Assembly (NCBI RefSeq): GCF_003334405.1
Contig: NZ_QOWM01000004.1
DNA from: Escherichia coli
GTDB lineage: Bacteria; Pseudomonadota; Gammaproteobacteria; Enterobacterales; Enterobacteriaceae
Direction: 5' to 3' (one strand)
DNA: 64,000 nt
Shown here piece after piece: positions 59,212-62,896 of the stretch. Position 1 is the stretch's first letter; each line of letters begins with the position of its first letter. Both the position numbers and the translations under genes were made by a program. Below the pieces are notes generated by a model. It did not search any database. It saw nothing but the letters and a program-made list of their open reading frames with translations, and was not told where the DNA came from.

Positions 59212-61560
59212 ATGCTGAGTTTATACGAAAAGATAAAGATAAGGCTGATAATTTTATTTTTATTGGCAGCACTGTCATTTATTGGTCTTTTTTTCATCAT
59301 TAACTATCAACTGGTATCGGAGCGCGCGGTAAAACGTGCCGATAGCCGCTTTGAACTTATTCAGAAAAACGTTGGCTATTTCTTTAAAGATATTGAACGT
59401 TCGGCCCTGACATTAAAGGACTCACTGTATTTATTAAAAAATACAGAGGAGATTCAACGCGCCGTGATTCTTAAAATGGAAATGATGCCATTTTTAGACT
59501 CGGTGGGACTGGTACTTGATGATAATAAATATTATCTTTTTTCGCGGAGGGCGAATGATAAAATCGTTGTTTATCATCAGGAACAAGTAAATGGACCGCT
59601 TGTCGACGAGTCAGGGCGGGTTATTTTTGCCGATTTTAACCCATCGAAACGACCGTGGTCGGTGGCTTCAGATGACTCTAACAACAGCTGGAATCCGGCA
59701 TACAATTGCTTTGATCGTCCGGGTAAAAAATGTATCTCTTTTACGCTACACATCAACGGCAAAGATCACGATTTGTTAGCGGTGGATAAAATTCATGTCG
59801 ATTTAAACTGGCGATATCTGAACGAGTATCTTGATCAAATCAGCGCTAATGATGAAGTTCTATTTTTGAAACAAGGCCATGAGATCATTGCCAAGAATCA
59901 ACTCGCTCGTGAAAAACTGATTATTTATAATAGCGAAGGTAATTATAATATTATTGATTCTGTCGATACTGAATATATCGAAAAAACATCAGCGGTGCCA
60001 AACAACGCATTATTCGAAATCTATTTTTATTATCCTGGCGGTAATTTATTGAACGCATCAGATAAACTTTTTTATCTGCCGTTTGCGTTCATTATTATCG
60101 TATTGCTGGTGGTTTATTTAATGACCACTCGTGTGTTCCGTCGGCAATTTTCTGAAATGACAGAGCTGGTTAATACGCTGGCGTTTTTGCCTGACTCAAC
60201 GGATCAAATCGAGGCTCTGAAAATTCGTGAAGGCGATGCGAAAGAGATTATCAGCATCAAAAATTCGATCGCGGAAATGAAAGATGCCGAAATTGAACGG
60301 TCAAATAAATTGCTCTCACTGATCTCTTACGATCAGGAAAGTGGTTTTATTAAAAATATGGCGATTATTGAGTCTAACAATAATCAGTATCTGGCTGTGG
60401 GGATCATCAAACTGTGTGGTCTGGAAGCCGTGGAAGCGGTGTTTGGTGTTGATGAGCGCAATAAAATCGTCAGGAAATTGTGTCAGCGAATTGCCGAGAA
60501 ATATGCGCAATGCTGCGATATCGTGACATTCAATGCCGATCTCTATTTACTTCTGTGTCGGGAAAATGTACAGACATTTACCCGTAAAATAGCGATGGTA
60601 AACGATTTTGACAGCAGCTTTGGCTACCGCAATCTGCGCATCCATAAGTCTGCCATTTGTGAACCTTTGCAGGGGGAAAACGCCTGGAGTTACGCAGAAA
60701 AACTGAAACTGGCGATTTCCAGTATCCGTGACCATATGTTCTCAGAGTTTATTTTCTGTGATGACGCGAAACTCAACGAAATAGAAGAGAATATCTGGAT
60801 TGCGCGTAATATTCGCCATGCAATGGAAATTGGCGAACTATTCCTCGTCTATCAACCGATCGTTGATATTAACACCCGCGCCATTCTGGGCGCGGAGGCG
60901 TTGTGCCGTTGGGTGTCTGCGGAGCGGGGGATCATTTCACCGCTGAAGTTCATTACCATTGCTGAAGATATCGGGTTTATCAATGAGCTGGGTTATCAGA
61001 TTATTAAAACGGCAATGGGTGAATTCAGACATTTTAGTCAGCGTGCGTCGCTGAAGGATGATTTCTTACTGCATATTAATGTTTCGCCCTGGCAGTTAAA
61101 CGAACCACACTTTCATGAGCGTTTTACCACCATCATGAAAGAAAATGGCCTGAAGGCGAACAGCCTCTGTGTTGAGATCACTGAAACCGTGATCGAGCGA
61201 ATTAATGAACATTTTTATCTCAATATTGAACAACTGCGTAAACAAGGGGTACGGATATCGATTGATGACTTTGGCACCGGTTTGTCAAACCTGAAACGTT
61301 TTTATGAAATTAATCCAGACAGCATAAAGGTGGACTCGCAATTCACCGGCGATATTTTCGGTACTGCGGGAAAAATTGTGCGCATTATTTTCGACCTGGC
61401 ACGCTATAACCGGATCCCGGTGATTGCGGAAGGCGTAGAGAGCGAAGACGTTGCGCGCGAATTAATCAAATTAGGATGTGTTCAGGCTCAGGGGTATCTG
61501 TACCAGAAACCCATGCCATTCTCCGCCTGGGATAAAAGTGGAAAATTAGTAAAAGAGTAG
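59212..61560 (+). CDS. pdeI: Membrane-anchored c-di-GMP phosphodiesterase PdeI (YliE), EAL domain
   Basis: Start [16 protein letters not shown]…; EAL motif (GAEALCRW); ORF track extends from 59134. Confidence 0.88.
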
Positions 61561-61567
61561 TTTACGT

Positions 61568-62896
61568 ATGTCCAGAATCAATAAGTTCGTACTTACAGTC
61601 AGTCTGCTGATTTTTATCATGATTTCAGCAGTTGCCTGCGGGATCTACACTCAAATGGTAAAGGAACGGGTGTATAGCCTGAAACAGTCCGTTATTGATA
61701 CTGCTTTTGCGGTGGCAAATATTGCTGAATATCGGCGTAGCGTGGCAATTGATCTTATCAACACGCTAAATCCCACGGAGGAACAGCTGTTGGTTGGTTT
61801 GCGCACAGCTTACGCCGACTCGGTTTCCCCCTCTTATTTGTACGATGTCGGTCCTTATCTGATTTCCAGTGACGAATGTATTCAGGTAAAGGAGTTCGAG
61901 AAAAATTATTGTGCAGATATTATGCAGGTTGTGAAGTATCGACATGTCAAAAATACAGGGTTTATCTCTTTTGACGGTAAAACCTTCGTCTATTACCTCT
62001 ATCCGGTAACTCACAATCGTAGTCTGATATTTTTGCTTGGTCTGGAGCGTTTTTCTTTACTGTCAAAATCGCTGGCGATGGACAGCGAGAACCTGATGTT
62101 CTCTCTATTTAAGAACGGTAAACCGGTGACCGGTGATGAATATAATGCTAAAAACGCCATCTTCACCGTTTCGGAAGCGATGGAGCACTTCGCCTATTTG
62201 CCGACCGGATTGTATGTATTTGCGTATAAAAAAGATGTTTATTTGCGGGTTTGTACATTGATTATTTTCTTTGCCGCATTGGTGGCAGTGATATCGGGTG
62301 CCAGTTGCCTCTATCTGGTACGCAGAGTGATTAATCGTGGTATTGTGGAGAAAGAAGCCATCATTAATAACCATTTTGAACGCGTACTGGATGGCGGGCT
62401 TTTCTTTTCGGCTGCCGATGTCAAAAAACTCTACAGTATGTATAACTCGGCGTTCCTGGACGACCTGACCAAAGCAATGGGCAGAAAATCCTTTGACGAA
62501 GATTTAAAAGCGCTGCCGGAAAAAGGCGGTTATTTGTGCCTGTTTGACGTCGATAAATTCAAAAACATTAACGACACCTTCGGTCATTTGCTGGGCGATG
62601 AAGTGTTGATGAAAGTGGTGAAAATCCTTAAATCACAGATCCCGGTAGATAAAGGTAAAGTCTACCGCTTCGGCGGTGACGAATTTGCGGTGATTTATAC
62701 GGGTGGAACGCTGGAAGAGTTGCTATCGATTCTAAAAGAAATCGTTCATTTCCAGGTGGGAAGCATTAATTTAAGTACCAGTATCGGTGTAGCACATTCA
62801 AATGAATGTCCTACCGTCGAACGCTTGAAAATGCTGGCGGATGAGCGGCTGTATAAGAGTAAGAAAAACGGCAGGGCACAGATTAGCTGGCAGTAA
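61568..62896 (+). CDS. dgcI: Diguanylate cyclase DgcI (YliF), GGDEF domain
   Basis: ORF 442 aa; intact RFGGDEF motif. Confidence 0.9.

Follow-up and report, generated by a model that had tools for sequence, protein, structure and literature searches.

The evidence supports a horizontal origin for the pdeI-dgcI (yliE-yliF) pair of Escherichia coli, a two-gene operon carried by a 3.9-kb insert flanked by the convergent gsiD and rimO. The window, i.e., the whole 64-kb stretch of DNA that we analyzed, belongs to the E. coli chromosome, runs from uvrB to rimO, and differs from strain HT-948 by 16 mismatches over its 64 kb. Our joint reading, to which we give a probability of roughly 0.7, combines a foreign two-gene operon, an old capture, and a sensor-controlled source and sink of c-di-GMP. 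Horizontal acquisition, already suggested in an earlier note made from the sequence of this region, is favored by the foreign composition of the insert, by empty sites in genera other than Escherichia, and by diverged relatives on plasmids and on an island that carries an integrase and a relaxase. The locus itself is that of PdeI (YliE, b0833) and DgcI (YliF, b0834) of E. coli K-12, and the domains found here match the published descriptions (PMC3484386). Both genes have already been named and studied, mobile homologs appear in a 2025 preprint, and most of what concerns the pair is already known; to this known locus, we add an empty-site comparison, a breakdown of the composition, an estimate of selection, and fold assignments. 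In the literature, we found no stated horizontal origin for the chromosomal pair.

The pair extends from the ATG start codon of pdeI at 59212 to the final base of the dgcI stop codon at 62896, in exact agreement with the annotation (Table 1). A Shine-Dalgarno-like sequence, AAGAG, lies inside the 3' end of pdeI, ahead of dgcI, and the junction of the two genes has neither a hairpin (folding z of 0.01) nor a terminator-like site in our scan. The only strong hairpin of the operon stands after dgcI (−20.3 kcal/mol on the plus strand and −25 on the minus strand, z of −4.1 and −4.9); it corresponds to the lone gsiD-rimO hairpin of insert-free genomes and likely acts as a bidirectional terminator. 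From this arrangement, pdeI and dgcI are probably co-transcribed and translationally coupled. The promoter scan returned 9 sites vs. 9.0 expected from shuffles, i.e., no enrichment. The sigma54 motif was matched 44 times in the window vs. 43 expected, and since this count is at the chance level, the two local near-matches carry no evidential weight. An RpoN site has nevertheless been reported, which would go with a distinct transcription start near 61290. A scan of positions 58900-63100 against Rfam gave no match with an E-value up to 1.

Table 1. Features of the pdeI-dgcI insert, in window coordinates.
Feature	Position	Strand	Evidence or remark
gsiD-pdeI spacer, left edge of the insert	59035..59211	+	37.3% GC
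Candidate sigma70-like TTGTAA-16-TAGAAT in the gsiD-pdeI spacer	59098-59125	+	promoter scan
sigma54-like near-match in the gsiD-pdeI spacer	59154-59169	+	motif scan
pdeI (yliE), 782 aa, predicted membrane-bound c-di-GMP phosphodiesterase with periplasmic sensor	59212..61560	+	ORF, annotation, Pfam CHASE9 + EAL
PdeI first hydrophobic segment (aa 6-36), TM1 or signal anchor	59227..59319	+	Kyte-Doolittle
PdeI CHASE9 periplasmic sensor (aa 35-150)	59314..59661	+	Pfam PF17153, E 2.3e-62
PdeI cysteine pair C166...C174 (CFDRPGKKC), periplasmic	59707..59733	+	alignment
PdeI second hydrophobic segment (aa 282-311), TM2	60055..60144	+	Kyte-Doolittle
PdeI middle domain (~aa 385-520), predicted GGDEF-like fold	60364..60771	+	fold comparison
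PdeI EAL domain (aa 532-767)	60805..61512	+	profile match
PdeI EAL motif, residues 562-564	60895-60903	+	sequence
pdeI-dgcI spacer, 7 nt	61561..61567	+	sequence
dgcI (yliF), 442 aa, predicted membrane-bound diguanylate cyclase with periplasmic sensor	61568..62896	+	ORF, annotation, Pfam GAPES2 + GGDEF
DgcI TM1	61574-61663	+	
DgcI GAPES2 periplasmic domain (aa 26-229)	61643..62254	+	Pfam, E 2.3e-143
DgcI cysteine pair C104/C115 in GAPES2	61877-61912	+	invariant across family
DgcI TM2	62231-62332	+	
DgcI GGDEF catalytic domain (aa 295-437)	62450..62878	+	Pfam PF00990, E 1.6e-24
DgcI GGDEF motif, residues 369-373	62672-62686	+	sequence
Hairpin between the dgcI and rimO stop codons	62907..62936	.	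RNA folding

The earlier note had judged by eye that the two genes are more AT-rich than their flanks and had attributed this to codon usage. The difference itself is borne out by calculation. Indeed, the GC content is 41.6% in pdeI and 43.5% in dgcI vs. a mean of 53.2% (sd 2.7) for the 53 other genes of the window (z of −4.25 and −3.56), and the block 59035-62942 has 42.1% GC vs. 52.4% in the remaining window. When a frame of 3908 bp is slid along the 64 kb, the minimum begins at 59019 (41.9%), while the next-lowest non-overlapping frame reaches 46.8% (mean 52.3%, sd 2.0), and the composition shifts no more than about 200 bp away from the stop codon of gsiD on one side and from that of rimO on the other. 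The attribution to codon usage holds only in part. GC3 is lowered, at 0.451 in pdeI and 0.497 in dgcI vs. 0.556-0.632 in gsiA-D and 0.577 in rimO, and it stays below a null in which each protein's own amino-acid sequence is recoded with the pooled codon usage of the window (z of −6.4 for pdeI and −3.1 for dgcI). However, the GC deficit is present at all three codon positions, and around 60% of it comes from positions 1 and 2. The residues F, Y, M, I, N, and K make up 35% of PdeI and 33% of DgcI vs. 23.6% of the pool. Karlin's codon-bias measure was also applied, with resampling; without length matching, it is misleading, because short genes score high. In this way, the foreign composition of the insert is shown to extend to codon positions 1, 2, and 3 alike.

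The site between gsiD and rimO was compared in a small sample, made of at least 13 Enterobacterales loci retained from 600 candidate stretches in a RimO-based scan and of three further loci added by GsiD protein look-up (Salmonella enterica, S. bongori, and Klebsiella). The pair is not universal in Enterobacteriaceae: among the genera examined, it is found at this site in Escherichia only, and it is missing there from at least seven genera, i.e., from all the non-Escherichia ones, four of these seven having a bare gap of 38-116 bp. From stop codon to stop codon, Citrobacter werkmanii and two species of Enterobacter have a gap of 38-54 bp with a single hairpin, S. enterica one of 90 bp and S. 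bongori one of 116 bp, each with a single hairpin for the two genes, and Mangrovibacter one of 101 bp; the pair is likewise not at the site in Klebsiella pneumoniae and Erwinia psidii. In Citrobacter, Enterobacter, and Salmonella, everything from the gsiD-pdeI spacer to the hairpin is missing. The site is occupied in E. coli, E. albertii, and E. fergusonii (in complete genomes for the latter), and a protein search revealed an ortholog in E. marmotae, which we do not count among the occupied sites. In E. coli, 5381 of the 5426 complete genomes (around 99%) keep at least 80% of the locus. The acquisition is old, i.e., it took place before the split of the Escherichia species, and the pair now belongs to the core genome. 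Among the features of a genomic islet, the insert presents a distinct composition, a restricted distribution, and mobile relatives; at its borders, formed by the stop codon of gsiD on the left and by the shared hairpin on the right, we found no integrase, tRNA, or IS remnant and no flanking direct or inverted repeats.

These borders free of mobility scars, together with the core status of the pair in E. coli and with one E. coli strain in which the whole pair was cleanly lost in an IS1-linked event, are what one would expect if pdeI-dgcI were ancestral at the site and had been repeatedly and cleanly deleted elsewhere, its AT-richness resulting from weak expression and relaxed codon selection. 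We consider such a vertical inheritance very improbable. It would require many independent and precise deletions to explain the genera devoid of the pair, among which five genomes from three genera keep 38-116 bp around one hairpin. Moreover, the AT bias at codon positions 1 and 2 is beyond the reach of weak codon selection, no ortholog above 45% identity was found outside Escherichia and Shigella in 5.8 billion protein clusters, and the relatives carried by mobile elements are still more AT-rich than the chromosomal pair.

These relatives form a family of cassettes in which an EAL gene is followed by a GGDEF gene. DgcI homologs of less than 60% identity are present on 102 plasmids, nearly all from E. 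coli, with identities mostly of 34-41% among the matches listed. Besides the chromosomal lineage, at least four more lineages, deeply diverged and with 29-43% identity to the pdeI-dgcI of the chromosome, carry such a cassette. On an IncHI1B plasmid, the EAL and GGDEF genes are followed by bcsA-bcsB-bcsC, and on an E. ruysiae contig, the cassette stands directly upstream of bcsA-B-C. One plasmid that carries both the cassette and bcsABC is NZ_CP070027.1. No bcs genes adjoin two further copies, one flanked by IS on an IncFIB plasmid and the other on a Salmonella island, where it stands beside UvrD, an integrase, and a TraI_2 relaxase. The link to cellulose genes holds for some of the mobile lineages only. 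Across six lineages and five genomic contexts, the gene order, a 4-9 nt gap or overlap, and the catalytic residues are all kept, and the identities of the PdeI and DgcI partners correlate over five deep lineages (r of 0.91, a value reached by 1 of 120 label permutations). YliE/YliF homologs beside mobile bcs clusters were described in a 2025 preprint (bioRxiv 10.1101/2025.05.09.653004). These bcs2-4-linked homologs represent the same cassette, as neither the gene order nor the domain architectures differ and the catalytic motifs are intact; the homologs are only 29-43% identical to the chromosomal pair, have 32-35% GC, reside on plasmids or islands, and often stand beside bcsABC, whereas the chromosomal pair has no effector neighbor. 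The GAPES2 profile gave 39 matches in 1.84 billion representative proteins, all of them fragments or members of this same family and none outside it, and word-index searches returned only Escherichia, Shigella, and Salmonella, without any outside donor.

The composition of the family suggests how the chromosomal copy may have arisen. The GC3 of the mobile copies is 27-31%, that of the chromosomal copies 37-50%, and that of host genes around 59%. One copy would have passed from a mobile, AT-rich pool of genes (around 33% GC) into an ancestor of Escherichia, and this copy would then have drifted part-way toward the composition of its host. Alternatively, the chromosomal lineage may have started at a higher GC content.

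Concerning the proteins, the main features announced in the earlier note, i.e., a membrane anchor in both, an EAL motif in PdeI, and an intact GGDEF motif in DgcI, were all recovered. Each protein has two hydrophobic segments (Kyte-Doolittle) around a stretch of approximately 190-245 residues. In PdeI, seven members of the family share without exception E562-A563-L564, N623, E655, E658, D685-D686-F687-G688, K706, E740-G741-V742-E743, and Q760. The catalytic residues of PdeI have also been reported as all conserved (PMC3484386), and the protein is predicted to be a c-di-GMP-hydrolyzing EAL enzyme. Its middle domain is predicted by fold comparison only to adopt a GGDEF-like fold, with a degenerate active site in which TFNADLY replaces RxGGDEF; for this domain, Pfam gave no match and hhalign against the DgcI family a probability of 0.4%, and a PDB profile search of PdeI covered residues 503-775 only. 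In DgcI, residues D327, D329, K332, N335, D336, H340, D344, and R367 are invariant in eight family members, and the A-site residues are all conserved (PMC3484386). The RxxD product-inhibition site is absent, residues 360-363 being VDKG, in a stretch that is variable in all lineages. The DgcI of Shigella flexneri produced the most c-di-GMP among four cyclases, an effect abolished by a GG-to-AA change (PMC11327459), and DgcI of E. coli is predicted to make c-di-GMP as well.

The GAPES2 domain of DgcI is predicted from modeling to have a double-Cache-like fold. Chemoreceptors, kinases, and cyclases use domains of the dCache type to bind ligands in the periplasm, and the mark of such domains is a double PAS-like fold placed behind a long N-terminal helix. 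GAPES2 differs from those of known structure (4jgo KinD, 4wy9 Tlp3, and 7k5n), with which it shares 7-11% sequence identity; it has no Pfam Cache match, and its family is limited to Escherichia and Salmonella. Both sensors carry a conserved cysteine pair, that of PdeI being invariant together with W160, just upstream, in seven sequences of 29-88% identity. CSS-domain phosphodiesterases, such as PdeC, are membrane EAL enzymes gated by a periplasmic disulfide. The pairs C166/C174 of PdeI and C104/C115 of DgcI appear to resemble the conserved periplasmic cysteine pair of these enzymes, although the sensors are CHASE9 and GAPES2 in one case and CSS in the other.

According to these predictions, both proteins would act as inner-membrane sensors. 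DgcI would read a periplasmic cue through its double-Cache-like GAPES2 domain and make c-di-GMP without a product-inhibition site, while PdeI would read its cue through the CHASE9-containing periplasmic region and relay the signal, by way of the degenerate GGDEF-like domain, to the intact EAL domain, which would hydrolyze c-di-GMP. Together, they would constitute a signal-controlled source and sink. That the pair forms a local c-di-GMP module, as the earlier note proposed, is plausible from the sequence comparisons, given the conserved pairing and the co-divergence of the two partners. The two genes are also co-regulated in the literature, which favors a local module as well: both are upregulated at 37 °C (PMC12890032) and with BolA (PMC5605933).

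The data obtained by overexpression could also be read in another way. When either enzyme is overexpressed, the consequences resemble those of a change in the global pool (PMC7553319, PMC11327459): additional pdeI confers the same resistance to phage N4 as five other active phosphodiesterases do (PMC7553319), and expressed DgcI lifts bulk c-di-GMP (PMC11327459). Overexpression of pdeI is also cited as lowering biofilm (in 10.1101/2023.06.20.545734). The two genes might thus have been acquired jointly without being functionally coupled, each enzyme acting independently on the cell-wide pool and the pairing being a matter of co-transfer. In the literature, we found no positive report of an interaction of PdeI with DgcI or with an effector; the main text of a large interaction screen gives no specific DgcI-PdeI result, in a data set that is incomplete for DgcI, without vector swap (PMC5635695). 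In S. flexneri, dgcI is among the intact cyclases, while the list of phosphodiesterases studied makes no mention of pdeI, a hint that one partner can persist alone. We nevertheless hold mere adjacency to be unlikely, while giving it serious weight. Indeed, pure hitch-hiking would be expected to split the pair at least once, whereas order and spacing are kept in six lineages of 29-43% identity and the partners co-diverge. Moreover, invasion and the size of plaques still changed with a catalytically dead Shigella DgcI (PMC11327459), an argument for effects at the protein level rather than through the pool.

The chromosomal copy has also suffered some damage. IS1 insertions in pdeI are seen in several E. 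coli strains, the E. albertii type strain carries a frameshift in pdeI, and one strain, as mentioned above, lacks the pair. In K-12 under standard conditions, the gene dgcI is barely expressed and its product undetectable; from a multicopy vector, DgcI is toxic (PMC5635695). One could see here a silent remnant, devoid of current function and on its way to becoming pseudogenes. This we judge extremely improbable: between E. coli and E. albertii, dN/dS is 0.076 for pdeI and 0.049 for dgcI (0.002-0.072 for the flanking genes), so that both chromosomal genes are under purifying selection. Furthermore, all the catalytic residues are invariant in the family, 99% of the complete E. coli genomes retain the locus, each enzyme shows activity once it is expressed (PMC11327459, PMC7553319), and mutant phenotypes have been reported in uropathogenic E. 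coli (PMC3484386). We speculate that its AT-rich sequence probably keeps the chromosomal copy nearly silent in the laboratory, the pair being AT-rich relative to the host, as are the targets of H-NS-type silencing. Silencing would fit the low expression (PMC5635695) and the induction at 37 °C (PMC12890032), although neither is specific to it, and no H-NS binding to pdeI-dgcI was found in the literature.

A co-transcribed diguanylate cyclase and phosphodiesterase acting as one sensor-controlled module already exist in E. coli with dosC-dosP (dgcO-pdeO), in which the cyclase gene comes first and both products are cytoplasmic heme proteins. PdeI and DgcI differ in being predicted membrane proteins with periplasmic sensors and in having the phosphodiesterase gene first. 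One may speculate that the original job of the cassette family was to feed c-di-GMP to a neighboring cellulose synthase; the chromosomal pair has no adjacent target or effector gene. A bolder and rather doubtful proposal sees in the CHASE9-EAL/GAPES2-GGDEF cassette a mobile and self-contained controller of c-di-GMP, moving together with accessory clusters for cellulose synthase, and in the chromosomal copy a domesticated orphan whose action would still be local and directed at a specific target, BcsA or some other effector, in host conditions, for instance at 37 °C. Both sensors would perhaps be gated by periplasmic disulfides, since each carries an invariant cysteine pair. If this were true, a deep divergence confined to Escherichia and Salmonella among some 15 billion proteins would suggest either an AT-rich reservoir that has so far escaped sampling or an unusually fast evolution of the sensors.

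E. coli K-12 possesses 29 GGDEF/EAL proteins, and the reason for keeping so many is a standing question. Without overturning current views, our analysis indicates that one of its "core" sets of c-di-GMP genes is an old import, still foreign-looking and under selection. If the drift described above did occur, the pair would be a tidy example of an acquired operon that has partly moved toward the composition of its host. It belongs to a small family of cassettes that are still moving on plasmids, often with extra cellulose synthases, which offers an idea for the role of PdeI and DgcI, i.e., a dedicated control of matrix production that may operate under host-like conditions.

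The window spans uvrB to rimO on the E. coli chromosome and departs from strain HT-948 at 16 of its 64,000 positions. The interval singled out by the earlier note corresponds exactly to pdeI plus dgcI, whose coordinates are collected in the table. The 7 nt separating the two genes are hairpin-free and a strong hairpin follows dgcI, which points to joint transcription of pdeI and dgcI. A genomic SELEX peak for RpoN has been published between yliE and yliF (PMC8743547). Two sigma54-like near-matches lie 43 nt 5' of the pdeI ATG and 296 nt 5' of dgcI, and the number of such matches across the window equals the chance expectation.

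Coordinates of the pdeI-dgcI locus, its protein domains and related features (window positions, unless an amino-acid range or an extracted locus of another genome, L, with its own coordinates, is given)
Feature	Position	Strand	Remark
gsiD	58123-59034	+	5' flank of pdeI
pdeI (yliE)	59212-61560	+	782 aa
dgcI (yliF)	61568-62896	+	442 aa
Strong hairpin	62907-62936		3' of dgcI
rimO	from 62943	-	convergent with dgcI
PdeI CHASE9 domain	aa 35-150
PdeI EAL domain	aa 532-767
DgcI GAPES2 domain	aa 26-229
DgcI GGDEF domain	aa 295-437
PdeI cysteine pair C166/C174	59707-59733
DgcI cysteine pair C104/C115	61877-61912
Sigma54-like near-match	59154-59169		5' of pdeI
Sigma54-like near-match	61272-61287		5' of dgcI
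ybhL	6117-6821
ybhM	7026-7739
Toxin-antitoxin insertion	L091 4667-5372		E. coli IAI39; equivalent to window 62897-62942
HEAT-like ORF	L005 2016-2729		E. albertii; 237 aa
Junction cargo	L006 11448-14286		Superficieibacter electus; 3 kb
MipA-like ORF	L010 11427-12185		Enterobacter sp. Ag1
Extended gsiD call	L097 5001-6233		K. pneumoniae GCA_036937635.1
No iaaA between moeA and gsiA	L093 1988-2222		E. fergusonii
IS1-linked deletion	L092 3311-4139		E. coli, pig isolate
pdeI frameshift	L005 about 6300-6400		E. albertii NBRC 107761

The pair had been described, by eye, as more AT-rich than its flanks, and computation bears this out. GC content is 41.6% in pdeI and 43.5% in dgcI versus a mean of 53.2% (sd 2.7) in the 53 other genes of the window (z -4.25 and -3.56), and the block 59035-62942 (41.9%) is the lowest-GC 3.9-kb stretch of the 64 kb, the next lowest elsewhere reaching 46.8%. 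At either end, the GC shift takes place no more than about 200 bp from the stop codon of gsiD or rimO. GC3 is 0.451 for pdeI and 0.497 for dgcI, versus 0.556-0.632 for gsiA-D and 0.577 for rimO, and is still too low (z -6.4 and -3.1) when the protein sequence is kept fixed and codons are redrawn from the pooled usage of the window. However, codon usage, to which the bias had been attributed, is not its sole source. Indeed, codon positions 1 and 2 hold about 60% of the GC deficit, and F, Y, M, I, N and K make up 35% of PdeI and 33% of DgcI versus 23.6% in the pool, so that the AT-richness lies in the proteins themselves, beyond codon usage. Elsewhere in the window, ybhM is a second compositional outlier (GC 42.6%, GC3 z -5.5 versus own-protein expectation); its paralogous neighbour ybhL has a GC content of 48.7%.

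Horizontal acquisition, as proposed earlier, is supported by the gsiD-rimO site of other genera, but the event is old. Junctions were gathered by a RimO-based scan (one genome per species) and GsiD look-ups. In two Enterobacter species and in Citrobacter werkmanii, 38-54 bp with one hairpin separate the gsiD and rimO stop codons; the gap is 90 bp in Salmonella enterica, 116 bp in S. bongori and 101 bp in Mangrovibacter, which lacks the pair, and the pair is likewise missing in Klebsiella pneumoniae and Erwinia psidii. It occupies the site in E. albertii and in complete E. fergusonii genomes, and at least 80% of it is kept in 5381 of 5426 complete E. coli genomes; an ortholog was also found among E. 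marmotae proteins. The insert borders show neither repeats nor integrase genes nor IS remnants. A single gain in an ancestor of Escherichia is the simplest history.

The same junction is a hotspot where cargo of various kinds is found. In IAI39 and numerous further E. coli strains, genes for a RelE/ParE-family toxin and a helix-turn-helix antitoxin are inserted between dgcI and rimO, and E. albertii has a HEAT-like ORF there. Superficieibacter electus, which lacks pdeI and dgcI, has 3 kb of other genes at the junction and, in the same place, an ORF 47% identical to that of E. albertii, and Enterobacter sp. Ag1 has a MipA-like ORF. In one K. pneumoniae genome, gsiD is called as 410 aa instead of 303 aa, 537 bp from rimO. 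E. fergusonii lacks iaaA upstream of gsiA. The products of its gsiA-D genes share 82-92% identity with their K-12 counterparts; GsiD, at 87%, is further from the K-12 protein than are the GsiD proteins of Citrobacter and Salmonella (90-91%).

Diverged copies of the cassette are mobile. A translated search with DgcI recovered homologues below 60% identity on 102 plasmids, almost all of them from E. coli; among the matches listed, these are mostly full length and 34-41% identical. In the two plasmids inspected, an EAL gene of 770-777 aa lies directly 5' of the dgcI homologue and overlaps it. An IncHI1B copy is followed by bcsA-bcsB-bcsC and an IncFIB copy is enclosed by IS elements; on an E. ruysiae contig, the cassette is immediately 5' of bcsA-B-C and a GAPES3-GGDEF-EAL gene, and in a Salmonella lineage it lies where a chromosomal island ends, beside genes for an integrase, a TraI_2 relaxase and a UvrD-like helicase. 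All lineages keep the EAL-then-GGDEF order and the catalytic motifs. Pairwise identities of the two partners correlate across five deep lineages (r 0.91, reached by 1 of 120 label permutations), hence the pair diversified as a unit. Mobile copies have a GC of 32-35% and a GC3 of 27-31%, while the GC3 of the chromosomal copies rises from 37-40% in E. fergusonii through 40-47% in E. albertii to 45-50% in K-12, host genes standing at about 59%. From this gradient, we infer an old import that has partly drifted to host composition.

No donor was found. A profile built from six diverged GAPES2 regions and scored on 1.84 billion representative proteins gave 39 matches, all fragments or members of the lineages described above plus one further lineage, and word-index searches, run with DgcI and with the sensor half of PdeI, matched only Escherichia, Shigella and Salmonella. 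It is mildly odd that lineages only 29-43% identical have been seen in no more than a small part of the gene pool of Enterobacteriaceae. This narrow range could reflect either fast-evolving sensors, periplasmic parts being 24-28% identical between lineages and catalytic domains 48-55%, or an unsampled reservoir.

As anticipated, both proteins appear membrane-anchored, with two hydrophobic segments apiece bracketing a long periplasmic stretch, and the EAL and GGDEF motifs are intact. No sequence similarity to GGDEF domains was detected between the second transmembrane segment and the EAL domain of PdeI. DgcI lacks the RxxD inhibitory site, which fits its reported high c-di-GMP output and the toxicity seen on overexpression (PMC11327459, PMC5635695). 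In each periplasmic part, a cysteine pair is invariant across the whole family, which recalls the disulfide-gated CSS-domain phosphodiesterases.

Both genes are kept by selection. In the comparison of E. coli with E. albertii, pdeI has a dN/dS of 0.076 and dgcI one of 0.049, similar to gsiA (0.072), with a dN two to five times that of neighbouring genes, and all catalytic residues are invariant across the family. Losses occur: several E. coli strains (genome-search matches H1, H6 and H7) carry IS1 inside pdeI, and one pig isolate has lost the whole pair. In NBRC 107761, the type strain of E. albertii, pdeI is frameshifted close to its 5' end, either as a true pseudogene or through an error in the draft assembly; other strains encode an intact 782-aa PdeI (protein P0166).

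In substance, the finding is already known. pdeI and dgcI are named and partly characterised, and a 2025 preprint describes YliE/YliF homologues that are carried on plasmids and lie next to bcs2-4 clusters (10.1101/2025.05.09.653004). For the chromosomal pair, we found no paper that sets out the empty sites or the gradient in composition; these results are routine comparative work and not a new kind of system. PdeI and DgcI are membrane-bound sensors with antagonistic enzyme activities, encoded as a tightly coupled pair. Each is active upon expression (PMC11327459, PMC7553319), and the two genes are reported to be upregulated at 37 °C (PMC12890032) and with BolA (PMC5605933); in standard cultures of K-12, DgcI escapes detection (PMC5635695). 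Periplasmic cues would shift the pair between making and degrading c-di-GMP, and the local module proposed earlier is a plausible hypothesis. The ancestral role of the family may have been to supply c-di-GMP to an adjacent cellulose synthase, and the chromosomal copy, with no neighbouring target, would be mostly silent because its AT-rich DNA is probably repressed.
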